Position numbers and translations under genes: made by a program. The notes under the pieces are model-generated. The model was not told the DNA's origin. It saw nothing but the letters and a program-made list of their open reading frames with translations, and searched no databases. DNA of 35,473 nucleotides from a virus (lineage: Duplodnaviria > Heunggongvirae > Uroviricota > Caudoviricetes): the IMG/VR virus record IMGVR_UViG_2850773344_000008. One strand, given 5' to 3'. Positions 11,475-28,124 of this stretch are shown here, piece after piece (positions within the stretch are counted from its first letter, which is position 1; every line of letters begins with the position of its first letter).

Positions 11475-12161
11475 ATGACCTCAATAAACATATTTATGAC
11501 AGTTGCTGATTTCAAACGGCCCAAATTGGAGCTCCCAAACGGGGCAAACAAACTACTACTGCACTCTTGCTGTGCTCCATGTTCCGGTGAGGTGATGGAG
11601 GCGCTTCAGGCCTCGGGAATCGACTACACCATCTTTTTCTACAACCCGAACATTCATCCTCAGAAAGAGTATTTAATTCGTAAGGATGAGAATATTCGCT
11701 TTGCTGAACAACACGGCGTGCCGTTTATTGATGCTGATTACGACACAGACAACTGGTTTGAACGAGCCAAAGGAATGGAATGGGAGCCCGAACGAGGGAT
11801 CCGTTGCACCATGTGTTTTGACATGCGTTTTGAGCGGACAGCGCTGTACGCCGCTGAAAATGGTTTCAGTGTGATCAGCAGTTCACTGGGCATTTCACGC
11901 TGGAAAAATATGCAGCAGGTTAACGACTGTGGGCGGCGAGCCGTCGCGCATTATCCGGGCATGGTGTACTGGGATTATAACTGGCGCAAGCAGGGCGGCT
12001 CGTCCCGTATGATTGAAATCAGCAAGCGCGAAAAATTCTATCAGCAGGAATATTGTGGCTGTGTGTATTCTCTGCGCGATACCAATCTACACCGCAAATC
12101 TCAGGGACGCCCTCTTATCAAAATTGGTCAACTCCACTACGGTAAAGAAGAGAAGGAGTGA
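11475..12161 (+). CDS. QueH-like (DUF208) Fe-S protein, putative epoxyqueuosine reductase
   Basis: 228 aa; signature [11 protein letters not shown] plus downstream Cys pairs (CTMC, CGC) as in DUF208/QueH proteins. Confidence 0.55.
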
Positions 12162-13119: not shown

Positions 13120-13719
13120 ATGGCACATATACAACTGGTCAAACAAACCTCTTCCGGATTACTTCTCCCGGCGACGCCGGAGAGTTGCGATTTTCTGCAT
13201 CAAATCAAAATAGGTGAGTGGATACACGCAGACTTTAAGCGTGTGCGTAACTACGCATTCCACAAGCGTTTTTTCAAACTCCTGCAACTGGGTTTCGATT
13301 ACTGGACTCCGGTCGGTGGGGCGATCACGCCTCGCGAACGAAAACTGGTGTCCGGTTTCGTTGATTACCTGTGTGAATCAGTAGGCCGGGAACATACGCC
13401 AGCTCTGAGCGAAGCCGCAGAGCAATATCTGAATACAGTTGCGACACGCAGAACCCGTGATACGGCATTGCTAAAGTCGTTTGAGGCTTTCCGCGAGTGG
13501 GTAGCCATTCAGGCCGGATTTTACACCGAGCATTTTTATCCGGACGGTAGCCGTGGGTGTCGGGCGAAATCTATCGCGTTTGCGAATATGGACGAAACCG
13601 AGTTTCAGCAGGTTTATAAATCTGTACTGAATGTGCTGTGGAACTGGATTCTGTTCCGTAAATTTTCCTCTCCGGAACAAGTCGAAAATGTGGCCGCGCA
13701 GCTGCTGGAATTTGCGTAA
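13120..13719 (+). CDS. DUF1367-like phage protein
   Basis: 199 aa from Met with GGAGAAA upstream; position (between replication block and Q) and recollection of lambdoid nin-region proteins. Confidence 0.45.
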   Translation: MAHIQLVKQTSSGLLLPATPESCDFLHQIKIGEWIHADFKRVRNYAFHKRFFKLLQLGFDYWTPVGGAITPRERKLVSGFVDYLCESVGREHTPALSEAAEQYLNTVATRRTRDTALLKSFEAFREWVAIQAGFYTEHFYPDGSRGCRAKSIAFANMDETEFQQVYKSVLNVLWNWILFRKFSSPEQVENVAAQLLEFA

Positions 13720-14009
13720 TGGTGGATTTACTTAAAGCGGCGCGGGGGCAGATGTGCACCGTCAGAATTCCTGGCTACTGCAATCACGATCCGGAAACGT
13801 CTGTGCTGGCGCATTACCGACTGGCGGGAACGTGCGGAACAGCGATAAAGCCACACGATATGCAGGCAGCGATTGCCTGTAGCTCGTGCCACGATTTAAT
13901 CGACGGGCGGGTAAAAACCAGCGATTACACCAAAGAAGAATTACGCCTGATGCATGCAGAAGGTGTTTTTCGCACACAAGAAATCTGGAGAAAGGAGGGA
14001 TATTTATGA
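13719..14009 (+). CDS. YbcO-like (DUF1364) putative nuclease
   Basis: 96 aa; Cys/His-rich motifs CTVRIPGYCNHDPETSVLAHYR...ACSSCHDLID; start overlaps upstream stop (TAATG). Confidence 0.6.
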   Translation: MVDLLKAARGQMCTVRIPGYCNHDPETSVLAHYRLAGTCGTAIKPHDMQAAIACSSCHDLIDGRVKTSDYTKEELRLMHAEGVFRTQEIWRKEGYL

Positions 14010-14560
14010 TTTACCCAACGAATACAGGAAAAAGCGGAGAACACCTTCGTCTCACCACGCTGGAAAGTGTCTGGATTCAGGGAAAACTACGTATGTGGGG
14101 GCGCTGGTCGTATATTGGTGGCGGTAAGACGGGGAATATGTTTAACCTGATGTTGACCTCTAAAAAGCTGACAAAAACGGCAATTAACGAGGCGCTCCGG
14201 AGGATGAAAAAAGCAGGTCTGAACAAGTCTGAACTTGAGGCTTTTTTGCGGGATATGATTAACGGTAAGCAAAAGAGCTGGCTGGCGCATTGTACTGATG
14301 CAGAGGCGTTATGTATTGATCGGGTCATAAGTGAGGTGCTGGCAGAGCATCCAGGATTGATTAGCGTCCTTCGGCAACGGTATGAGGGGCGGGGGATGAC
14401 CAAATGCAAAATGGCTGAACTGCTGAATGATGCACACCCGAAATGGAGTTTAAGAACCTGTGAAAGACGCATTGAGCATTGGCTAAAGGTGGCAGAATTT
14501 ATTTTGTACAAACCAATGGTTATGGCTTTTGGTATAGAGAAAAAAGTTATTGCTTTTTGA
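14006..14560 (+). CDS. putative late-gene antiterminator Q
   Basis: 184 aa from Met 14006 (AAGGAGGGA upstream, ATGA overlap with preceding gene); last gene before the tRNA array and the lysis cassette, the canonical Q position. Family not verified. Confidence 0.45.
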   Translation: MIYPTNTGKSGEHLRLTTLESVWIQGKLRMWGRWSYIGGGKTGNMFNLMLTSKKLTKTAINEALRRMKKAGLNKSELEAFLRDMINGKQKSWLAHCTDAEALCIDRVISEVLAEHPGLISVLRQRYEGRGMTKCKMAELLNDAHPKWSLRTCERRIEHWLKVAEFILYKPMVMAFGIEKKVIAF

Positions 14561-14749
14561 CGTAAAAACTGCTTCAATTCTTGTACGCTTCGCAAAGCTG
14601 TACCGCGAGGCGAATAGCAGACATGGACATTTGAAAGAGCCCGCTTTATGCGGTTTTTTTTATACCTGAAAAACGGCACAGGACGTTAAACGTGCTGGTG
14701 ATCAGATGAGTTTGCAGATGTGATGACATATGGTTATTATTCTGCCTCC

Positions 14750-14826
14750 GGCCCTTTAGCTCAGTTGGTCAGAGCGAGCGACTCATAATCGCCAGGTCGC
14801 TGGTTCAAGTCCAGCAAGGGCCACCA
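14750..14826 (+). tRNA. tRNA with CAT anticodon (Ile2-lysidine type or Met)
   Basis: 77-nt cloverleaf: acceptor GGCCCTT/AAGGGCC, anticodon loop CTCATAA, T-loop TTCAAGT, encoded CCA. Confidence 0.8.
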
Positions 14827-14827
14827 A

Positions 14828-14904
14828 CCACCACTAGCTCATCCGGATAGAGCATCAACCTTCTAAGTTGACGGTGCGAGGTTCGAGTCCTCGGTGGTGG
14901 GCCA
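14828..14904 (+). tRNA. tRNA-Arg (anticodon TCT)
   Basis: 77 nt: acceptor CCACCAC/GTGGTGG, anticodon loop CTTCTAA, T-loop TTCGAGT, CCA. Confidence 0.8.
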
Positions 14905-14906
14905 GC

Positions 14907-14981
<75 letters not shown>

Positions 14982-14984
14982 TAT

Positions 14985-15059
<75 letters not shown>

Positions 15060-15672
15060 GCGAGATTTGAGACGAAGGTTGTTATTTGCACTGACACAAT
15101 ATTGTGTGGGAATGTCTGACTCCTTACCATCTCCTGTTCTGTGATGTTGTTTTGTTGCAGTTCCAGTGCTCTTTTTTCAGCACCAGAATGGTGCATTGTC
15201 GGTCAGGTTACGTAGTGAACCTCTGGCAGGGGACTGATAATGCATCATTCTGGTGTTGTAAATATCTCTTCGGACAACTTACAAAATATTCTAAGCAAAC
15301 CCCGGGAACACACTCTTAACTGCCTTGGTTGGCGGTTTTTTGCACAGCGCTCGGTATGTGTGAGCTGGAAATCAGATTTTGCATGGACTGGAATCATGCT
15401 GTTATTTAGGGGCGAAGAACTGGCTTTTTCTTCCGCCTTCTCACCAGTAACGATTAGAAAAATAATGAAATGCCCCCTCCGGGGAGGAGGACCGTAGAAA
15501 AAAGGACCCGCCAGCAAAAACATTGGGGATGAACAGCTTTCGCTACTCAGATTGCTGGCGGGTAAAGTTCCTCATGAATTAAGAATGCTACGCGATCTTT
15601 TTTAATGGAAATGAAAATTATTGTCAATTAGTCGTGCGTGTTTTTTCATACAATATTGGTAAAGGTGATTCA

Positions 15673-15703
15673 GGCCATCAGAGTTTTGCTGATGGCCTTT
15701 TTT
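15673..15703 (+). terminator. strong intrinsic terminator (tR'-like) just upstream of the lysis genes
   Basis: 9-bp stem GGCCATCAG/CTGATGGCC, loop AGTTTTG, then T6. Confidence 0.7.
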
Positions 15704-15871
15704 CTTTCCGATAGCACAGGTCTGTCGGGGGGGGGGATATGTATCAGATGGAAAAAATATCAACAGGCATTGCCTACGGCACCTCCGCCGGCAGTGCCGG
15801 CTACTGTTTTTTGCAGTGGTTGGATCAGTGAGGTGTACTGGCAATAGCGGACACTACCATTTGTTCTTTTT

Positions 15872-16663
15872 TTAAGCAGCCATCTGATGATATTTTTCCC
15901 TGAAGGCTGCCGGGGAGATATTCCCCAGACGAGAGTGACGACGCTGACGATTGTAGAAAATCTCAATGTATTCCCGTATTACTGAGATGGCTTCATCCCG
16001 GTTATTAAAACGATAGTGGCTCAGGCTCTCATTTTTCAGCGTTCCCCAGAAGCTTTCCATCGGAGCGTTGTCGTAACAGTTACCTTTACGCGACATTGAT
16101 GTTTTCAGACCAAACTGCTCCTGTATGACCCGGTAATCGTATGCGCAGTACTGTGAACCTCGATCAGAGTGGTGGATTAGCCCGGCAGGTGGGCGCTGGC
16201 TCCTGAGCGCCATAAACAGGGCTTTACCTGTCAGCTCTTTTGTCATGCGCTCTCCCATGGCGTAGCCGACAATTTCGCACGTATAAACATCTTTGATGCC
16301 AGCAACATACGTCAGGTCCGCCACCCAGACCTGATTTGGTGCTGTAGGAGCGAACGTCTGGTTCAGCAGATTTGGCGCAACTGGCAGATTGTGGTTCGGG
16401 TTCGTAGTCGCTCTGAACTTGCGTTTCTGCTTACAGCGTAGCCTCAGCTCCTTACGAAGACGTGCCAGTCGGTCACGACCAACGATGATGCCATTCTCTG
16501 CCAGCTCCGTCTGGAGCCGCCGGGTTCCATATGTTTCGCGAGTGCGGATATGTGCCACCTTAATCTCCAGTTTTAGCCGCTCATCACTTTGTTTTCTGTC
16601 TGAGGGTTCATGCTGTACCCAGTTGTAATAACCGCTCCTGGATACACCAAATACCTGACACAT
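15872..16663 (-). CDS. IS600 OrfB, 9-codon in-frame deletion variant
   Basis: 263 aa; ...ADLTYVA/GIKDVY... junction instead of ...ADLTYVATQEGWLYLAGIKDVY.... Confidence 0.8.
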   Translation of the reverse strand: MCQVFGVSRSGYYNWVQHEPSDRKQSDERLKLEIKVAHIRTRETYGTRRLQTELAENGIIVGRDRLARLRKELRLRCKQKRKFRATTNPNHNLPVAPNLLNQTFAPTAPNQVWVADLTYVAGIKDVYTCEIVGYAMGERMTKELTGKALFMALRSQRPPAGLIHHSDRGSQYCAYDYRVIQEQFGLKTSMSRKGNCYDNAPMESFWGTLKNESLSHYRFNNRDEAISVIREYIEIFYNRQRRHSRLGNISPAAFREKYHQMAA

Positions 16664-16698
16664 CGCTTCAATGGGAAATTGTTGTCGCCATTGTTCGA

Positions 16699-17001
16699 TT
16701 AACGCGTATTTTTCAGCGACTCCTGTGCAAAATACGCTGTTGCTTTTTTTAATATATCGCGCTCAAGGCGAGCTTCATTTAACGCCTTACGCAGTTGCAG
16801 AATTTCAGATTCCAGTTCAGCCACCGTGCGGGAACCAGGAGTACCGAGCCCTTTTCTGGCGGCGGTAACCCATTGTCCTAAAGTGCCTTCAGGAAGGGAT
16901 AATCGGGAAGCGCCTTCACTGATCGAAAGTTGATTTTCAAGAACCGTTCTGACAGCTTCGGCTTTGAACTCTTTAGAGTAACGTTGGGTTTTTCTGCTCA
17001 T
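16699..17001 (-). CDS. IS600 OrfA
   Basis: 100 aa identical to copy 1 OrfA. Confidence 0.9.
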   Translation of the reverse strand: MSRKTQRYSKEFKAEAVRTVLENQLSISEGASRLSLPEGTLGQWVTAARKGLGTPGSRTVAELESEILQLRKALNEARLERDILKKATAYFAQESLKNTR

Positions 17002-17193
17002 TATTAGCTCCTTCTGATGCCATTCTATTTCAGGAAGGAGTGTCCGTTAAACTCAGGCTACCTCACAGGTCAGTCCATCACAGTGGGCTGCGATTGGTGT
17101 GCTGGGAAGTCTGCTTCTGGGGCTTCTGACTTATCTGACGAATCTGTATTTCAAAATAAGAGAAGATAAGCGTAAGGCTGCGAGAGGTGAATA

Positions 17194-17709
17194 ATGTCGC
17201 CATCATTACGCAAGGCTGTTGCAGTTGCTATTGGTGGCGGGGCTGTTGCTATAGCATCTGTGTTAATCACTGGCCCAGGTGGTAACGATGGTCTGGAAGG
17301 TGTCAGCTACATACCATACAAAGATATCATTGGTGTATGGACTGTATGTCACGGACACACCGGAAAAGACATCATGCCTGGTAAAACGTATACCGAAGCA
17401 GAATGCAAAGCTCTCCTGAATAAAGACCTTGTCACTGTCGCCAGACAAATTAACCCGTACATCAAAGTCGATATACCGGAAACAACGCGCGGCGCTCTTT
17501 ACTCGTTCGTTTACAACGTGGGCGCTGGCAATTTCAGAACATCGACGCTTCTTCGCAAAATAAACCAGGGCGATATCAAAGGCGCATATGACCAGCTACG
17601 TCGCTGGACATATGCTGGCGGTAAGCAATGGAAAGGGCTGATGACCCGTCGTGAGATTGAGCGTGAAGTCTGTTTGTGGGGTAAGCGCCCCATCAGCGAC
17701 GTCTTGTGA
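17194..17709 (+). CDS. SAR endolysin (phage 21 R-type lysozyme); last ~9 codons supplied by the IS66-family terminus
   Basis: N-terminal Gly/Ala-rich signal-anchor-release segment ([20 protein letters not shown]), lysozyme core (...[11 protein letters not shown]...[28 protein letters not shown]...); IS66-type inverted repeat starts at 17681 inside the ORF. Confidence 0.8.
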
Positions 17710-17762
17710 AAATTGTCCTGTCTGGCAACAATCGCGCCCATCTATATTGATGGACACGAACG

Positions 17763-18437
17763 ATGAATTCCCAGACAACAAAAGATATTCCCTGCTTCCG
17801 TTCTTATTTGCCTGATGCCCTGCGTTTAAGATTTGAAGATAAACTGACCATCCGGGCCATCGCTCAGCGTCTGGGTCTCAGTCATTCCACAATACATACG
17901 CTTTTTCAGCGATTTCTTGCATCCGGTATCGCATGGCCATTGCCCGATTCAGTTTCATTCGCTCAACTTGACGCCATCCTTTATGCCAACAGAAAGAAGG
18001 AATTAACAGAGCCTCAAATCAGAGAAGGCTCATGGCGAAAAGAACGGCGAACCAGCTATAGCCGTGAATTTAAGGTCCGTCTGGCTAAGCAGGCATTACA
18101 GCCTGGGGCTGTTGTTGCCCGGATCGCCAGAGAACACGATATCAATAATAACCTGCTGTTTAAATGGAAAAGCCAGTACGAGGACGGCTTACTGAGCGAT
18201 GATGACATACAGGAATGCATGCCTGTCCCGGTGGCACTGACTGATACGCCGGAGCCGACCAGACCAGTTACAAATCCCTTCTGGCGTAACAAGCATGATG
18301 AGCGCCCTGAGGGGGCTCCCGGAAACGTCCCACGGTGCGAGCTGCATCTTAAATCAGGTGTGGTAAAACTGTTTGACCCTCTCACTCCGGAACTGTTACG
18401 GGCGCTAATCCGCGAAATGAAAGGGGGTATCCGATGA
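17763..18437 (+). CDS. IS66-family Orf1 (TnpA-like, HTH)
   Basis: 224 aa; HTH segment LTIRAIAQRLGLSHSTIHTLFQRF; C-terminal half (RRTSYSREFKVRLAKQALQPGAVVARIAREHDINNNLLFKWKSQY) typical of IS66 TnpA. Confidence 0.65.
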   Translation: MNSQTTKDIPCFRSYLPDALRLRFEDKLTIRAIAQRLGLSHSTIHTLFQRFLASGIAWPLPDSVSFAQLDAILYANRKKELTEPQIREGSWRKERRTSYSREFKVRLAKQALQPGAVVARIAREHDINNNLLFKWKSQYEDGLLSDDDIQECMPVPVALTDTPEPTRPVTNPFWRNKHDERPEGAPGNVPRCELHLKSGVVKLFDPLTPELLRALIREMKGGIR

Positions 18438-18784
18438 TAACGCTGCCGACCGGTACCAAAATCTGGATCATCGCTGGCATCACAGATATGCGTTGTGGCT
18501 TCAATGGCCTGGCTTCGAAGGTGCAGAACACGCTGAAAGATGACCCGTTCTCCGGGCATATCTTCGTCTTCCGGGGCCGCAGTGGCAAAATGGTGAAAAT
18601 ACTGTGGGCCGATCGTGACGGGTTATGCCTGTTCACCAAACGTCTGGCCGGTGACCCGGGAAGGGAAAGTGCACCTGACGCCAGCTCAGTTATCCATGCT
18701 ACTGGAGGGGATCGCGTGGCCACATCCCAAACGGACAGAACGGCCTGGCATCCGGATATAACCCGTGATAAAACAAGGGAATGA
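18434..18784 (+). CDS. IS66-family Orf2 (TnpB)
   Basis: 116 aa [28 protein letters not shown].... Confidence 0.8.
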
Positions 18785-20382
18785 ACAATGAACTCCCCGA
18801 TGATATTGAGCTGCTTAAAGCCATGTTGCGTAAGCAACAGAGTCGGCTTCGACAGTATGCCTGTCAGGTCGCGGGCTATGAGCAGGAAATTGAACGGCTG
18901 AAAGCGCAACTCGACAGGTTGCGTCGTATGTTGTTCGGCCAGAGTTCAGAGAAAAAGCGTCATAAGCTTGAAAATCAGATCCGACAGGCAGAAAAACGAC
19001 TGTCGGAACTGGAAAACCGGCTGAACACAGCCAGAAATCTTCTGGAAGATGCATCGTCAGTCACAGATTCACCTGACACCAGTCCCCCGTCAGAAAACCC
19101 GATCGCCAGTAAGCCTGAATTCCCGGGACGAAAATCTTCACGAAAACCGCTGCCGGCAGAACTTCCCCGGGAGACACATCGCCTTCTGCCTGCTGAAACC
19201 AGTTGCCCGGCCTGTGGAGGTGTTCTGAAAGAAATGGGGGAAACAATCTCAGAGCAACTGGATATCATTAATACCGCCTTTAAAGTTATCGAAACCATAC
19301 GTCCCAAACTGGCCTGTAGCCGGTGTGATGTCATCGTTCAGGCACCACTTCCTCCTAAACCGATCGAACGCGGTTATGCCAGTGCAGGGTTACTTGCACG
19401 GATCCTGGTCAGCAAATATATGGAACATATCCCTTTATATCGCCAGTCAGAAATATACGCGCGACAGGGCGTGGAGCTGAGCCGTAATACCATGGTGCGC
19501 TGGGTATCAGAAATGGCAGACAAACTCCGTCCTCTGTATATAGCGCTGAATGACTATGTTCTGGAGGCAGGAAAGGTGCACGCAGATGACACTCCGGTGA
19601 AAGTACTGGCCCCGGGGAACGGAAAGACGAAAACGGGTCGTCTGTGGGTATACGTCAGGGATGATCGTAATGCGGGTTCATCCCTGCCGGCAGCCGTCTG
19701 GTTCGCGTATTCGGCAGATCGCAAAGGAGAACATCCGCAGCTCCACCTGGCAAAGTATCAGGGCGTACTGCAGGCTGATGCCTATGCAGGTTATAACGTA
19801 CTGTACGAAACGGGCCGGGTGAAGGAAGCCGGGTGCCTGGCCCACGCCCGCCGAAAAATCCATGACGAGGATGTGCGCCGTCCGACAGAAATGACTCAGG
19901 AAGCGCTCAGACGGATAGCAGAGTTATACGACATAGAAGCGGAGATACGTGGCAGTCCGGCAGAGGAACGGCTTGCAGTCAGAAAAGCCAGAAGCGTCCA
20001 GTTGATGCAGTCGTTGTACGACTGGATACAGTTGCAGAGGAAAACGCTGTCGAAACATGCGGAGATGGCGAAGGCGTTCGACTATATCCTGAATCACTGG
20101 AATGCGCTGAACGAGTTCTGTCGTGACGGCTGGGTGGAAATAGACAACAACATCGGTGAAAACGCGTTACGATCGGTGGCGGTTGGAAGAAAAAATTATC
20201 TCTTTTTCGGCTCAGACAAGGGAGGAGAAAGTGCGGCGATCATCTACAGTCTGCTGGTCACCTGCAAACAGAACGAAGTGGAGCCGGAGGACTGGTTGCG
20301 CGAAGTGATCGAGAAGCTCAATGACTGGCCGTCGAACCAAGTGCATGAACTGCTGCCCTGGAACTTCTCGTCTGTAAAATAA
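18781..20382 (+). CDS. IS66-family Orf3 (TnpC, DDE transposase)
   Basis: 533 aa; N-terminal coiled coil/leucine zipper, CxxC...CxxC zinc motif (CPACGG...CSRCD), C-terminal DDE core. Confidence 0.85.
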
Positions 20383-20414
20383 TCCTTACGCTACGTACTT
20401 CTCGGGGCGCTTAC

Positions 20415-20694
20415 GGATGTTGGGACTTGAACCGAAGAACACGGCGGTGCGGAGTCCGGAGAGTAACGGAATAGCAGAGAGCTTCGTGAAAACGATAAAG
20501 CGTGACTACATCAGTATCATGCCCAAACCAGACGGGTTAACGGCAGCAAAGAACCTTGCAGAGGCGTTCGAGCATTATAACGAATGGCATCCGCATAGTG
20601 CGCTGGGTTATCGCTCGCCACGGGAATATCTGCGGCAGCGGGCTTGTAATGGGTTAAGTGATAACAGATGTCTGGAAATATAGGGGCAAATCCA
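20415..20694 (+). mobile_element. IS2 3'-terminal fragment (about 280 bp)
   Basis: Identical to the last ~280 bp of the two full IS2 copies (end of insD plus right terminus ...GGGGCAAATCCA); abuts the IS66-family right end. Confidence 0.8.
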
Positions 20695-20921
20695 GTCACC
20701 GCGATTATCTCCGCTCTGGTTATCTGCATCATCGTCTGCCTGTCATGGGCTGTTAATCATTACCGTGATAACGCCATTACCTACAAAGAGCAGCGCGACA
20801 AAAACGCAAGAGAACTGAAGCTGGCGAACGCAACCATTACTGACATGCAGCAGCGCCAGCGTGCTGCTGATGCACTCGATGCTAAATACACGACGGAGTT
20901 AGCCAATGCGAAATGAAGTGG

Positions 20922-22090
<1,169 letters not shown>

Positions 22091-22172
22091 TGGAGCACCT
22101 GTGTTGTTCTGAGGTGAGCATATCACCTCTGTTCAGGTGGCCAAATTCAGTGTGCCACTTCAAAAGCTGAAA

Positions 22173-22364
22173 ATGATGCTCTTCGGCGCAAGCTTGATAA
22201 TGGTGGTCGGGTGCTCGTCAAAGGAAAATGCCCTGTGCCATCCTCAGCCGAAACCTCCAGCGCCTCCGGCATGGGCAATGATGCCACCGTCGAACTCTCT
22301 CCAGTTGCTGGACGAAACGTTCTCGGTATCCGGGACGGAATCATCAGCGACCAGACAGCATTGA
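22173..22364 (+). pseudogene. Rz1 (o-spanin lipoprotein) remnant embedded in Rz
   Basis: +1 frame inside Rz: MMLFGASLIMVVGCSSK..., lipobox-like LIMVVGC followed by Pro-rich stretch PQPKPPAPPAWAMMPP; upstream start region is cut by IS911. Confidence 0.5.
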
Positions 22365-22496
22365 GAATGCTTCAGGAGTACATCAGGATCCAATGCCTTG
22401 GGGGGTAGCGGTAATTTTACTCATTATCCTTCAAATCAGATTCTGTTGTCAGAGGAATGGGGGAAGCTGGATTCGCAAGAGCTTTTTATGGGCAGT

Positions 22497-23009
22497 TTAG
22501 CTAAAAAAAGGCAACACGAAGCTAAAACTACCAACATAAAGTGCTGACCAGCTAGCAGCTGAAATCAGACTCACTGTATACACTTTCACTGGATGAAGTT
22601 GCAACATTCCTGCCACCAAAGGAGCAATGTAACGCAGCACGGCGATAAAGCGCGAAGTGAAAAGTATTGACACAGAGTTATTTTGCAACTGAAGGCGAAC
22701 CCGTTCTATTGTATTGGAACGGCTCGATATTATACATGCAAGTTGAGGGATATGCCCAATTATTATACCAAGATGGTAATTAACGATAGTACCGCACCAT
22801 GCGCCACTCATGACCGTGATTCCAGCTTCCCATGGTGAAAGAGTCGTCTTGCTGACTGTAATTACAGTGGCCATCATAATTGATGCTGGTGGCAATATCG
22901 CCGAAATGAGTAAAGTGGATTTTGTGAACGCTATTATAAAAAGAAGCCCCCATAGGCGATATGGATGAAGTACAAAATAGTTCATCAAAGCATTTATCCA
23001 CTCCATCAA
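22497..23009 (-). CDS. DedA/YqaA-family inner-membrane protein (moron)
   Basis: 170 aa, several predicted TM helices, AT-rich coding region, opposite strand to the flanking late genes. Confidence 0.45.
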   Translation of the reverse strand: MMEWINALMNYFVLHPYRLWGLLFIIAFTKSTLLISAILPPASIMMATVITVSKTTLSPWEAGITVMSGAWCGTIVNYHLGIIIGHIPQLACIISSRSNTIERVRLQLQNNSVSILFTSRFIAVLRYIAPLVAGMLQLHPVKVYTVSLISAASWSALYVGSFSFVLPFFS

Positions 23010-23203
23010 TGTCTTTCCTTCTGTGAATTTTTCTTTGCTATTTAACCGTGATACGACTTAATTTAGGCTTAAACACCTTACATTTACAAGGTACTCCTGT
23101 GGGGGGCCCTGCCACGGAGCGTCGCAGGAGTGAGTGATAAGGAAGAATTAAAGCAACCTATTGTGACAGGCAGCGATAACAGTAAATCACAGGAAGCATA
23201 ATC

Positions 23204-23968
23204 ATGGCAAAACCGGACTGGGAGGCCATCGAATCGGCATACCGGGCCGGAGTCCTTAGCCTCCGTGATATAGGCGAGAAATACGGCGTTACAGAAGGGG
23301 CTATCAGGAAGAGGGCCAAAAAGCTTGATTGGGCACGCAGTGGCGGTACGCAGGTTTGCAAAAATGGTACGCAAAAAAGGAAAGTGCGTACCAGCAGAAA
23401 GCCTGCCATTACTGGCCTTACACAAAAAAGTACGCAACTAAAAACAGAATCTACACCGGATACGAAACCGATACGCGGAATGCGTACCGATCCCCCGACT
23501 ACCCCATTCCAACCCGGTAACCAGCAGGCATTAAAACACGGTGGTTATGCCCGTCGCCTTCTGCTCAAAGATGAGGTGATAGAGGACGCTAAAGCGTTGA
23601 CGCTCGAGGACGAATTATTTCGCCTTCGTGCTAACAACCTTGTCGCTGCAGAGAATATTGGTCGGTGGTTGGTGTCGCTGGAAGATGCTAATGGGGACCA
23701 GGAAAGGAAGATGCTGATTGAAAATATCAGCGCCGCCGAGAAAGCAATGATGCGCAATACAGTTCGTATTGAGTCCATCGTTGGCACGCTTGCGACGGTA
23801 GGAAAAATATTTGCTGATACAGCCTACCGCAAGGCCGCCACTGATAAGGTGTCTCTGGAGGCTGATCGTCTTCGCCGTGATGCAGGTATTGATGATGGCA
23901 ATGGAGAGCGTGACCTCAATGACTTCTACTCTGACATCCAAACCGACGCTGAATCCGGCTTTACGTAG
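23204..23968 (+). CDS. terminase small subunit
   Basis: 254 aa; N-terminal HTH (LSLRDIGEKYGVTEGAIRKRAKK); immediately upstream of and overlapping the large-subunit gene. Confidence 0.6.
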   Translation: MAKPDWEAIESAYRAGVLSLRDIGEKYGVTEGAIRKRAKKLDWARSGGTQVCKNGTQKRKVRTSRKPAITGLTQKSTQLKTESTPDTKPIRGMRTDPPTTPFQPGNQQALKHGGYARRLLLKDEVIEDAKALTLEDELFRLRANNLVAAENIGRWLVSLEDANGDQERKMLIENISAAEKAMMRNTVRIESIVGTLATVGKIFADTAYRKAATDKVSLEADRLRRDAGIDDGNGERDLNDFYSDIQTDAESGFT

Positions 23969-24677
23969 TTTCTGGACTATGCGGGCACGTAACAAAGTGC
24001 TTTATGGTGGTCGGTCATCGTCAAAATCATGGGATGCCGCTGGCATTGCCATATTTCTGTCGAATAAATACACCCTGCGTTTTTGTTGTGCCCGTCAGAT
24101 CCAGAATAAAATCGAAGAGTCGGTGTATACCCTGCTCAAAATTCAGATAGACAGGTTTGGTCTGCGGCACCGTTTCCGTATTCTGAACAACAAAATCATT
24201 AACCGGGTTACTGGCTCGGAATTTGTTTTTTATGGATTATGGCGCAACATCGAAGAAATTAAGTCACTGGAGGGGATCGATGTGTTGTGGCTGGAAGAAG
24301 CCCACGCACTGACGGAATACCAGTGGAAAATTCTGGAGCCAACGATCCGTAAAGAGGGTTCGGAATGCTGGTTCATATTCAACCCCGGACTTGTTACTGA
24401 TTTCGTCTGGCGCAACTTCGTTGTTGATCCGCCCGAAGGCACTCTCATCCGCAAAATTAACTATGACGAAAATCCGTTTCTGTCTGACACCATGCTTAAG
24501 GTTATCGACGCGGCGCGACGCCGTGATCCGGATGGTTTTAAACATGTGTATGAGGGCGTTCCGGAGTCTGATGATGATGCGGCAATTAGACTGGCCCCCT
24601 GAATCTCCAGACAACCAGTATCACTTATTTAAGTGATAGTCTTAATACTAGTTTTTAGACTAGTCATTGGAGAACAG

Positions 24678-25043
24678 ATGATTGATGTCTTAGGGCCGGA
24701 GAAACGCAGACGGCGTACCACACAGGAAAAGATCGCAATTGTTCAGCAGAGCTTTGAACCGGGGATGACGGTCTCCCTCGTTGCCCGGCAACATGGTGTA
24801 GCAGCCAGCCAGTTATTTCTCTGGCGTAAGCAATACCAGGAAGGAAGTCTTACTGCTGTGGCCGCCGGAGAACAGGTTGTTCCTGCCTCTGAACTTGCTG
24901 CCGCCATGAAGCAGATTAAAGAACTCCAGCGCCTGCTCGGCAAGAAAACGATGGAAAATGAACTCCTCAAAGAAGCCGTTGAATATGGACGGGCAAAAAA
25001 GTGGATAACGCACGCGCCCTTATTGCCCGGGGATGGGGAGTAA
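24678..25043 (+). CDS. insC: IS2 InsC
   Basis: 121 aa; one substitution relative to copy 1 (KKWIAHAPL vs KKWITHAPL). Confidence 0.85.
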
Positions 25044-25906
25044 GCTTAGTCAGCCGTTGTCTCCGGGTGTCGCGTGCGCAGTTGCACGTCATTCTCAGAC
25101 GAACCGATGACTGGATGGATGGCCGCCGCAGTCGTCACACTGATGATACGGATGTGCTTCTCCGTATACACCATGTTATCGGAGAGCTGCCCACGTATGG
25201 TTATCGTCGGGTATGGGCGCTGCTTCGCAGACAGGCAGAACTTGATGGTATGCCTGCGATCAATGCCAAACGTGTTTACCGGCTCATGCGCCAGAATGCG
25301 CTGTTGCTTGAGCGAAAACCTGCTGTACCGCCATCGAAACGGGCACATACAGGCAGAGTGGCCGTGAAAGAAAGCAATCAGCGATGGTGCTCTGACGGGT
25401 TCGAGTTCTGCTGTGATAACGGAGAGAGACTGCGTGTCACGTTCGCGCTGGACTGCTGTGATCGTGAGGCACTGCACTGGGCGGTGACTACCGGCGGCTT
25501 CAACAGTGAAACAGTACAGGACGTCATGCTGGGAGCGGTGGAACGCCGCTTCGGCAACGATCTTCCGTCGTCTCCAGTGGAGTGGCTGACGGATAATGGT
25601 TCATGCTACCGGGCTAATGAAACACGCCAGTTCGCCCGGATGTTGGGACTTGAACCGAAGAACACGGCGGTGCGGAGTCCGGAGAGTAACGGAATAGCAG
25701 AGAGCTTCGTGAAAACGATAAAGCGTGACTACATCAGTATCATGCCCAAACCAGACGGGTTAACGGCAGCAAAGAACCTTGCAGAGGCGTTCGAGCATTA
25801 TAACGAATGGCATCCGCATAGTGCGCTGGGTTATCGCTCGCCACGGGAATATCTGCGGCAGCGGGCTTGTAATGGGTTAAGTGATAACAGATGTCTGGAA
25901 ATATAG
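25001..25906 (+). CDS. insD: IS2 InsD
   Basis: 301 aa; one substitution relative to copy 1 (MDS vs MDN). Confidence 0.9.
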
Positions 25907-26657
25907 GGGCAAATCCAGCAATCATCAAACTGTCTTGGATAGAAGCCGCAGTGGATGCGCACAAAACGTTAAATTTCGAACCCAGTGGAAGAAAGCGTAT
26001 TGGCTTTGACGTGGCTGACAGTGGTACAGATAAGTGCGCTAACGTTTACCGTCACGGATCCGTTGTTTTCTGGGCCGACGAATGGAAGGCCAAAGAAGAT
26101 GAATTACTGAAGAGCTGCCAGCGTACTTATCAGGCGGCGCTGGAGCGTGAAGCAGATATTGTTTACGACTCTATCGGTGTTGGTGCGTCTGCCGGTGCTA
26201 AATTCTCTGAAATTAACGCTGACCGGAAGAGCGAGAACGCATACGCGCGACGTGTGAATTACCAGAGGTTTAACGCCGGTGCTGGTGTGCATGAGCCAGA
26301 TGACGAGTACAACGGCATCCCCAACAAAGACTTTTTCGCAAATCTTAAGGCTCAGGCATGGTGGCTGGTGGCTGACCGTTTCAGAAATACGTTTAACGCC
26401 ATTAACAACGGAGAACAGTATCCTGTGGATGAGCTGATCAGCATAGATTCTCGTTGTCCGTTGCTTGAAAAGCTGAAACTGGAACTGACAACACCTCATC
26501 GTGATTTCGACCGTAACGGACGTGTGATGGTCGAAAGTAAAAAAGACCTCGCAAAACGCGAGATACCGTCACCAAACGTTGCTGATGCATTCATTATGGC
26601 CTTCGCGCCAATCGATACATCGCTGGATATCTGGGAACAGCTGGGGAGACAGGCCTG

Positions 26658-28124
26658 ATGGCACGAAACAAACAAGCCCTGCGGCGAACTGTGCAGGCCA
26701 CAGCTGATGGTTATGAGAATTTTATTGCCCAAGTAGGGATGCAGACACCTAACCAGCACTCAGCATCCACCTACCGGGCTAATTTCACCAGTCGTAACCG
26801 CATGCTGGTGGAATGGTCCTATCGTTCATCCTGGATCATCGGCGAAGCAGTCGATGCTATCCCGGATGATATGACCCGCAAAGGCATTCGCATCACTTCG
26901 GAAATTGATGCAAAAGATCGTGGCATTCTCGAATCACAACTGGATGAGTTGCAAATCTGGGATGCGCTGAATGACGTGCTGAAATGGTCGCGCCTCTACG
27001 GCGGCGCGGTGGGTTTCATCATGATTGAGGGGCAGGCACCAATGACCCCGCTGCGACCCGAAACCATCGGTAAGGGCAAGTTTAAGGGGATTCTCCCGCT
27101 CGACCGCTGGATGGTCGACCCGGCACTGACCCGCCGCATTAAAGATATGGGGCCGGACCTGGGTAAACCTGAGTTTTACGATGTGGTGACCACAGCAACG
27201 GGAATTCCTGCCTGGCGCATTCATCACAGTCGCCTGATTCGCTTTGATGGCGTCACGTTGCCATTTCAGCAGAAGATGACCGAGAACGAATGGGGAATGT
27301 CGGTTGTAGAGCGTATCTGGGATCGTCTTACCGCGTTCGACAGCGCTACTGTCGGCGCGGCGCAGCTGGTCTACAAGGCGCATTTGCGTACCTACAGCGT
27401 GGAGAAGCTACGAGAGCTTATCGCACTTGGTGGTCCTGCGTATGAAGCGTTGCTGAAGAATATCGACCTGATTCGACAGTTCCAGAGTAATGAAGGCATG
27501 ACGCTCATGGACTCGCGGGATAAGTTTGAAACCCATCAGTACAGCTTCAGTGGTCTGGATGACATCCTTTCGCAGTTTGCAGAACAGATTAGTGGCGCTG
27601 TTGGTATCCCACTGGTGCGGTTGTTCGGACAGTCCCCGAAAGGATTTTCTACCGGTGATGCAGACCTTGCCAACTATTACGATCGCATCAGTTCGTTGCA
27701 GGAGAGGCGTTTACGTCTTCCGGTGCGGCGGATACTGGACATCATGCATCGTTCGGAACTTGGCAAGCCGCTGCCGGACGATTTCACGTTTGAGTTTAAC
27801 CCGCTCTGGCAAATGTCTGATGTCGATCGCTCAACGGTGGCGTTAAACACCACCAACGCAATCAGTACGGCGCTGGGTGATGGTCTGATGACACTGAAAG
27901 CCGCTATGACTGATTTGCGAGAAAATTCTGACGTAACCGGCATAGGGGCATCCATTACCAACGAGGACATCGAGAATGCCGAAGATGAAGCGCCGCCCGG
28001 CATCGGCGAACCTGATGACGAACCGCAGGAGCCGTCAGGCGGAAATCCGGTATCAAACCAGCCTACGCAGGATAGCGAGGGCGGTCGGAGACATCGTAAA
28101 TGGTCGCTACGATGGTTCAAATGA
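26658..28124 (+). CDS. phage portal protein
   Basis: 488 aa; position directly after terminase (TGATG overlap); acidic C-terminal tail. Confidence 0.65.
   Translation: MARNKQALRRTVQATADGYENFIAQVGMQTPNQHSASTYRANFTSRNRMLVEWSYRSSWIIGEAVDAIPDDMTRKGIRITSEIDAKDRGILESQLDELQIWDALNDVLKWSRLYGGAVGFIMIEGQAPMTPLRPETIGKGKFKGILPLDRWMVDPALTRRIKDMGPDLGKPEFYDVVTTATGIPAWRIHHSRLIRFDGVTLPFQQKMTENEWGMSVVERIWDRLTAFDSATVGAAQLVYKAHLRTYSVEKLRELIALGGPAYEALLKNIDLIRQFQSNEGMTLMDSRDKFETHQYSFSGLDDILSQFAEQISGAVGIPLVRLFGQSPKGFSTGDADLANYYDRISSLQERRLRLPVRRILDIMHRSELGKPLPDDFTFEFNPLWQMSDVDRSTVALNTTNAISTALGDGLMTLKAAMTDLRENSDVTGIGASITNEDIENAEDEAPPGIGEPDDEPQEPSGGNPVSNQPTQDSEGGRRHRKWSLRWFK

Follow-up and report, generated by a model that had tools for sequence, protein, structure and literature searches.

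What happens to a phage lysis cassette when an insertion sequence (IS) lands in its holin gene, and is the holin the only part that is damaged? This question is raised by a 35,473-nt stretch of DNA, IMG/VR record IMGVR_UViG_2850773344_000008 (here called the window; all coordinates are positions in this record unless another record is named). In the window, the pinholin gene S of a phage 21-type cassette is split by a copy of IS600. We found that the damage extends beyond S. As read from the sequence, every gene of the cassette (S, the endolysin gene R, and the spanin gene Rz) is broken. The window is an ipaH-carrying lambdoid prophage remnant of the Shigella flexneri lineage. We conclude, with high confidence, that S is a dead pinholin gene in a decayed prophage and that the lysis module as a whole would be a non-functional passenger relic beside ipaH.

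The pinholin gene S is split by IS600

The frame that opens with the ATG at 15739 runs for only 30 codons. It is closed by a TGA, and this TGA is the first three bases of IS600 (15829-15831), so that translation of S should stop at once. IS600 follows codon Q30, which lies in the loop that connects the two transmembrane domains (TMD1 and TMD2). What can still be translated is a 30-residue product with TMD1 only; the insertion takes away TMD2, which is strongly hydrophobic, and the charged tail. The downstream part, 'S, has no usable start. It is untranslatable in frame because a TAA inside the IS (17048-17050) closes that frame, and its only internal start, a GTG at 17099, begins within TMD2. 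There is no uninterrupted, translatable holin gene at S, and the split gene is, from its sequence, a pseudogene of the S21-type holin family and not a working member of it.

Removing 15829-17068 in silico (the IS and one CAG) gave a 216-nt open reading frame (ORF) of 71 codons, which places the insertion point between codons 30 and 31. The last A of the S stop codon, TAA, is also the first base of the ATG of the next gene (17194). Most of this had been described in the original prediction, which was made from the sequence. Its coordinates for the split gene were all correct when we re-read the sequence. Its 30 N-terminal and 41 C-terminal codons are in frame and give 71 amino acids when joined. 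Its intact 3-bp CAG duplication was borne out as well, with CAG in both flanks and a single CAG in the empty site (see below). Finally, it had placed the truncation after the first transmembrane segment, and IS600 does lie in the loop that follows the weakly hydrophobic TMD1.

The repaired S is a phage 21-type class II holin

We found that the repaired S aligns without gaps, over its full length, to S of phage 21, with 64 of the 71 residues identical. The phage 21 gene (L002 1496-1711) is annotated as the S21-71/S21-68 dual-start antiholin/pinholin. In silico excision followed by alignment to class II holins had been proposed as a check on the identification of S, and the alignment that we obtained covers the whole protein. 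The repaired S matched model positions 1-63 of 64 of Pfam PF04971 (Phage_holin_2_1, 'Bacteriophage P21 holin S') with an E-value of 6e-34 and a score of 116 bits (cutoff 26). It also matched holin families in PHROG (E-values 1e-31 to 1e-34). Overall, the products of the cassette are 90-99% identical to characterised proteins.

The topology of the repaired protein is that of S21. The Kyte-Doolittle profiles of the two proteins superimpose. Residues 7-28 of the repaired S are uncharged, weakly hydrophobic and rich in Gly, Ala and Ser; hydropathy peaks at residues 35-58, and a cluster of Lys and Arg follows at 59-69. The glycine-zipper positions G40, S44 and G48 of pinholin TMD2 (motif as cited in PMC9025707) are all kept.

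The two starts of the repaired S, M1 and M4, are both present. Residues 2-3 are Tyr-Gln, versus Lys-Ser in S21, so the longer form gains no charge. Lys2 is what gives S21-71 its antiholin character. Because Lys2 is absent from the repaired S, it cannot be taken for granted that the longer product acts as an antiholin. The earlier description of a dual-start class II holin resembling phage 21 S therefore stands for the S21-type identity of the sequence and for the two start codons, and does not extend to the charge that distinguishes the two products of S21.

The empty site and the inserted IS600

A match of two 3-bp flanks is expected by chance alone in 1 of 64 cases. The decisive indication of how the CAG repeat arose came from the uninterrupted region in E. 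coli RMDEC465 (L001). Window positions 13126-15828 align through L001 position 6731, and window positions 17066-17681 align from L001 position 6729. The two flank alignments overlap by exactly 3 bp, and these are CAG. That CAG is used twice in the window and once in L001 is the signature of transposition that duplicates a 3-bp target.

The repaired 1341-nt stretch (15100-15828 joined to 17069-17680) matched end to end in four complete E. coli genomes (RMDEC465, VL40, FDAARGOS_944 and FDAARGOS_943) with 99.0-99.3% identity. In each of them, the annotation shows rrrD preceded by an uninterrupted 'class II holin family protein'. The repaired S is identical to the intact protein of RMDEC465 (WP_000284485.1) at 70 of 71 residues, the sole difference being W23C (15807 G>T). 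Across S and R, all of the coding differences from the nearest intact allele (3/3: W23C in S; A80V and C132Y in R) are non-synonymous, which fits the expectation for sequence that is free of selection. When the interrupted region was compared with complete E. coli genomes, no record covered at least 80% of it. The matches at approximately 78% were rejected, since they reflect IS600 copies that happen to be located close to other S-R cassettes.

The element in S is the second of three IS600 copies in the window. Its ends are TG...CA with imperfect terminal inverted repeats (TGAGGT...ACCTCA), and it is approximately 99.5% identical to RefSeq features annotated as 'IS3-like element IS600 family transposase'. 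An A7G slippery site for a -1 frameshift is present at 16743-16750 (minus strand), in the 3' region of orfA. Copy 2 is 1237 bp long, versus 1264 bp for the full element, and has a 27-bp in-frame deletion in orfB at about 16301/16302. The nine codons that it removes (ATQEGWLYL) come immediately behind WVADLTYV, within the integrase core recognised by Pfam rve, and the rve score falls from 90.2 to 69.7 bits with the deletion. Copy 2 falls short of the full 1264 bp, and its DDE transposase core is not intact. This copy is probably non-autonomous, without an active transposase.

Among the three copies, only copy 2 has matching 3-bp flanks. Copies 1 and 3 (2611-3874 and 31686-32949) are each 1264 bp long, are mutually inverted, and bracket most of the prophage. 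Their flanks are mismatched (TAT/CAT and AAT/ATA), which suggests later recombination or deletion at these two copies. We also considered a 6-bp similarity between the flanks of copies 1 and 2. At 5 of 6 positions it is a chance extension and gives no evidence of recombination between the two elements. With Rfam at gathering thresholds, the region 14500-22300 yielded only the four tRNAs listed in Table 1 and no frameshift-element or small-RNA family.

R and Rz are also disrupted

R encodes an endolysin with a signal-arrest-release (SAR) segment. The intact allele ends in ...TGG GGG CAG CAA TGA, and the window reads ...TGG GGT AAG CGC CCC... The native ORF is 165 amino acids long; in the window its terminal Gln-Gln and stop are replaced by eight residues encoded by ISSfl3. 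The endolysin ORF had been taken to be intact. This view has to be given up, as R is native only to residue 163, has a tail from ISSfl3, and carries A80V and C132Y.

The best match of R in the structural database was PDB 4zpu (RrrD; E-value 6e-105), and 3hde (R21) matched with an E-value of 4e-104; the alignments end at residues 163-165. R keeps the N-terminal Gly/Ala-rich SAR segment and E35, D44 and T50 (GH24, PF00959), which we take from the R21 literature to be the catalytic triad. Residue 132 is Cys in R21 and RrrD, Ala in distant solved homologues, and Tyr in the window. Tyr132 may be disruptive to R, and C132Y together with the altered C-terminus would be expected to impair it.

The ISSfl3 in codon 164 of R has termini GTAAGCGCCCC...GGGGCGCTTAC, is 99.7% identical to annotated ISSfl3 features, and has Pfam matches to HTH_Tnp_1, TnpB_IS66 and DDE_Tnp_IS66. 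It lacks an 8-bp target duplication because its right flank is IS2 DNA. Approximately 14 bp, containing the stop codon of R and the start codon of Rz, have been lost from the R/Rz junction, where ISSfl3 and the IS2 remnant now lie. The arrangement of 17681-20694 looks like an IS-mediated adjacent deletion that followed a nested insertion.

Rz is interrupted further downstream by IS911. The part of L001 that matches the 5' fragment of Rz (7359-7578) falls inside an annotated 'lysis protein' (7351-7827). Beyond IS911, window positions 22163-23243 align to L001 7576-8654 with 99.1% identity. The IS911 termini are TGAAGTGG...CCACTTCA, and the element is 99.7% identical to annotated IS911. AAA is found on both sides of it, and the intact sequence has one AAA.

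R21-type enzymes are exported via their SAR segment, and no holin is needed. Because export of a SAR endolysin is independent of the holin, loss of the holin alone would not guarantee that the cassette is silent. The original prediction had held that the break in the holin gene stops the cassette from firing. That claim does not hold as stated, since the endolysin needs no holin for export and R and Rz have themselves been hit by IS elements. SAR endolysins acting alone cause slow, gradual lysis, and the pinholin sets its timing (PMC9025707, PMC7312051). Loss of the holin by itself would thus be expected to lead to slow, untimed lysis rather than to none.

Table 1. Features of the lysis region and its surroundings in the window.
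Feature	Position	Strand	Details
ipaH gene	1..1812		LRR_TTSS and NEL E3-ligase domains; at the window edge
Q-like late antiterminator gene, 184 amino acids	14006..14560	+	apparently intact; Pfam DUF1133, E 5e-106; PHROG 753 'anti-termination protein Q-like'
Four phage tRNA genes (Met/Ile-CAT, Arg-TCT, Thr-TGT, Gly-TCC)	14750..15059	+	between Q and S; ARAGORN, Rfam RF00005; same four annotated in L001
Putative terminator-like GC hairpin and T run	15672..15698	+	40 nt upstream of S; consensus scan only; 10-pair stem, 6 GC pairs
S' fragment, codons 1-30	15739..15828	+	M1 and M4 starts, TMD1, loop up to Q30; carries W23C
Left copy of target duplication, CAG	15826..15828		codon Q30; single copy in empty site
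IS600 copy 2 (IS3 family), 1237 bp	15829..17065	-	orfA 16699-17001; orfB 15872-16663
Right copy of target duplication, CAG	17066..17068
'S fragment, codons 31-71 and TAA	17069..17194	+	TMD2 with G40/S44/G48; basic C-terminal tail
R, chimeric SAR endolysin gene, 171 amino acids	17194..17709	+	residues 1-163 native; 164-171 (KRPISDVL) from ISSfl3; A80V, C132Y
ISSfl3 (IS66 family), in codon 164 of R	17681..20414	+	tnpA 17763-18437; tnpB 18434-18784; tnpC 18781-20382
IS2 3'-terminal remnant, 280 bp	20415..20694	+	identical to ends of full IS2 copies (window repeat family)
Rz (i-spanin) 5' fragment	20695..20913	+	without first four codons including ATG; 98.6% identical to L001 7359-7578
IS911, 1249 bp, in Rz	20914..22162	-	AAA target duplication
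Rz 3' fragment and embedded Rz1 region	22163..22414	+	end approximate, extrapolated from L001 annotation

The same insertion is present in other genomes

We found the exact chimeric R encoded in four complete NCBI genomes (L003-L006), all of which carry IS600 in S (S::IS600). They include CP000266.1 and CM001474.1, which we take to be Shigella flexneri 5 str. 8401 and 5a str. M90T, respectively. W23C is present in all four (4/4). The IS600 in S is full length in CP000266.1 and CM001474.1 (L003 and L005), and has the 27-bp deletion in the other two genomes and in the window. The presence of a full-length element at the same site in two genomes indicates that the deletion postdates the insertion and is specific to a sublineage. 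In addition, a short contig (L008) is an exact substring of the window and ends at the ISSfl3 junction.

There is one small difference just upstream of S. The G run directly 5' of the S start (15727-15737) reads GTCGGGGGGGGGGATATG in the window, and GGGGGGGCGGG in the four S::IS600 genomes and in the intact E. coli allele. Either the ribosome-binding region has lost one nucleotide in the window, or the homopolymer was misread in sequencing.

The exact 38-nt left junction was also found in Shigella flexneri SFBU1023 (L009) and E. coli ECMA0423 (L010). In these two genomes, the left junction of S' with IS600 is kept, the DNA past IS600 is unrelated to 'S, and IS911 with an inverted Rz-to-terminase segment abuts Q at the position corresponding to 14118 of the window. 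The S locus is structurally polymorphic, presumably as a result of recombination between IS elements.

Genomes that carry the insertion have been publicly available for years, and the insertion is a routine example of a well-understood process. S21, R21/RrrD, IS600, ISSfl3 and IS911 are well characterised. It is equally well established that IS elements create pseudogenes in Shigella and that chromosomal ipaH genes derive from prophages. Among the papers covered by a literature search on IS600 in Shigella holin genes and on ipaH islands and prophages, none was found that mentions the S::IS600 insertion.

Possible explanations for the broken cassette

The history that we favor runs as follows. 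An ancestral lambdoid ipaH prophage bore a phage 21-type cassette, with S as pinholin, R as SAR endolysin, and Rz/Rz1 as spanins. IS600 jumped into S between codons 30 and 31 and duplicated the CAG target. The TGA at the IS terminus halts translation, leaving only a 30-residue TMD1 peptide, and the hole-forming TMD2 and the basic tail are without a start codon. The sequence itself shows this much. ISSfl3 and IS2 at the R/Rz junction, and IS911 in Rz, are independent further hits. S and R have gathered only non-synonymous changes, and in a sublineage the transposase core of this IS600 was later shortened by 27 bp. The module would now be without function and subject to neutral evolution, in a genome undergoing IS expansion.

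Nothing in the sequence contradicts the interpretation of S as a dead pinholin gene. There are, however, points that weigh against this account of the module. The sequence does not give the order of the four IS events. The chimeric R keeps its SAR segment and E35/D44/T50, so that its loss of activity can only be inferred. Lastly, a Logan contig of 1022 bp (SRR29016707; L007) joins R::ISSfl3, 100% identical to the window, to an intact S. The S in this contig is a different S21-like allele (MKSMDK..., with unrelated upstream DNA), and the switch lies in the last ~45 bp of S. The contig could be the result of recombination between paralogous prophages, or an assembly chimera.

It is also conceivable, though in our judgment unlikely, that the lysis module was disabled stepwise, with each hit advantageous, and that this yielded the IS cluster in the cassette. 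Since a SAR endolysin lyses without a holin, knocking out S alone would leave an ipaH prophage unsafe, and further hits in R and Rz would be favored. Lysis by SAR endolysins alone, albeit slow and gradual, is documented (PMC9025707), and the upstream Q and tRNA genes look intact. The clustering of the IS elements also points in this direction. Of the eight IS events counted in the window, four hit the 1.18-kb cassette, versus 0.38 expected if events were spread evenly over the 24.8 kb outside IS elements (Poisson P about 6e-4). If ISSfl3 and IS2 are counted as one locus, the figures are 3/7 events versus 0.33 expected (P about 5e-3). However, the test was post hoc, on a single window picked for this feature. 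IS elements nest within and beside one another, and the uniform expectation ignores target preference. Moreover, hits that come after the first inactivation, or after induction has been lost, are neutral. The terminase gene terL has been hit too, and both ends of the prophage are truncated, which fits undirected decay. We therefore regard it as doubtful that the cluster of IS600, IS2, ISSfl3 and IS911 would reflect non-neutral selection in S. flexneri that disarmed the pinholin/SAR-endolysin module gene by gene and locked in ipaH.

Transcription reading out of IS600 might instead drive R as a host-controlled autolysin. The ribosome-binding region of R (GAGAGGTGAATAATG) and its start codon are intact 126 nt past the end of the IS, and the catalytic residues of R are retained. 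Yet the sole promoter-like match at that end of the IS (17050-17022, minus strand) points inward, toward orfA, and the number of promoter-like matches in the region (3) is that expected from shuffled sequences (3.2). R has an IS-derived tail and two substitutions, one of which puts Tyr at a position held by a small residue (Cys, or Ala in distant homologues), and no spanin is available. We consider such a rewiring very improbable.

The idea that an IS600 copy was misplaced into the holin gene by an assembly or sequencing error, which the multicopy nature of IS600 (three copies in the window) might prompt because repeats often cause misassembly, has a negligible chance of being correct. The junctions are the same in four complete genomes, each assembled independently, and in short contigs whose ends coincide with IS boundaries, and two more complete genomes share the exact 38-nt left junction. 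Nor would misassembly be expected to create a perfect 3-bp duplication or a 27-bp deletion specific to one copy. The independent genomes and the deletion together exclude such an artefact.

Prophage context

The genes around the cassette are those of a lambdoid prophage in decay. After ipaH come IS600, Rha/Ash and cI-like regulators, replication and Nin-region genes, a Q-like gene of the DUF1133 family, and four tRNAs. The Q-like gene is, by family assignment, the predicted upstream regulator of the lysis cassette, and the 2.7-kb stretch that holds it is 98.4% identical to the intact prophage of L001. Downstream of the cassette are a DedA-family gene, terminase genes, and portal, MuF-like, scaffold-like and capsid genes. 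IS elements make up 30% of the window. In addition to those in the cassette, there are full copies of IS2 at 5625-6956 and 24587-25918, with 5-bp duplications of CTGAG and GCAAT, respectively. The second of these splits terL into fragments at 23811-24602 and 25891-26658. ipaH is likely the cargo that explains retention of the region.

Some other features of the window were observed. The approximately 600 bp between the tRNAs and S (15100-15700) have no family match, and the intact E. coli relative has no annotated gene there. Shiga toxin (Stx) phages carry their toxin genes at this position, between the tRNA cluster and S. An ORF of the QueH family (epoxyqueuosine reductase) lies at 11475-12161, amid the early and Nin-region genes. 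Past IS600 copy 3, the segment 32947-35473 contains two ORFs with Mu DNA-binding domains, one of them a Mu-type transposase gene that also has a DDE_2 domain. This indicates that a remnant of a Mu-like prophage abuts the lambdoid remnant.

The importance of the locus is mostly one of annotation. It is a base-exact case of IS expansion in Shigella fixing an effector-carrying lambdoid prophage as a chromosomal island, and it corrects the impression that the holin alone is damaged. The repaired S allele (MYQMEK, no Lys2) could serve as a natural variant in studies of the pinholin dual start, and the IS-free E. coli counterparts provide a reference for dating the steps of decay.

Comparison with known systems

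As an insertion, copy 2 resembles other IS600 insertions in Shigella genomes in its TG...CA ends, its orfA/orfB organization with the A7G site, and its 3-bp target duplication. It differs in lacking nine codons just past the region of the first catalytic Asp.

As a holin gene, S resembles S of phage 21 (S21-68 pinholin/S21-71 antipinholin) in its 71 codons, the Met1 and Met4 start codons, the two TMDs, and the basic tail. As in phage 21, its stop codon overlaps the ATG of the SAR endolysin gene. Unlike phage 21 S, it is split after codon 30 by IS600, and no product containing TMD2 is possible. The N-terminus is MYQMEK, versus MKSMDK in S21; the intact E. coli allele also has MYQMEK, without Lys2. 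The window S has, in addition, W23C in TMD1.

The closest relative is the intact allele in enteroinvasive-like E. coli (RMDEC465, VL40 and FDAARGOS_943/944). This allele has the class II holin WP_000284485.1, RrrD and Rz, is 99.3% identical in DNA across Q, the tRNAs, S and R, and shares the gene order onward into Rz, the DedA-family gene and terminase. In contrast to the window, its S, R and Rz are free of IS elements, S has W23, and R has A80, C132 and the native Gln-Gln-stop.

The cryptic prophage DLP12 of E. coli K-12 (essD-rrrD-rzpD) likewise has a phage 21-type S-R-Rz cassette within a defective lambdoid prophage, and its RrrD (4zpu) is the top structural-database match of the window R. 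In DLP12, however, the ORFs are uninterrupted (essD and rrrD in RefSeq), whereas in the window all three genes are disrupted by IS elements.

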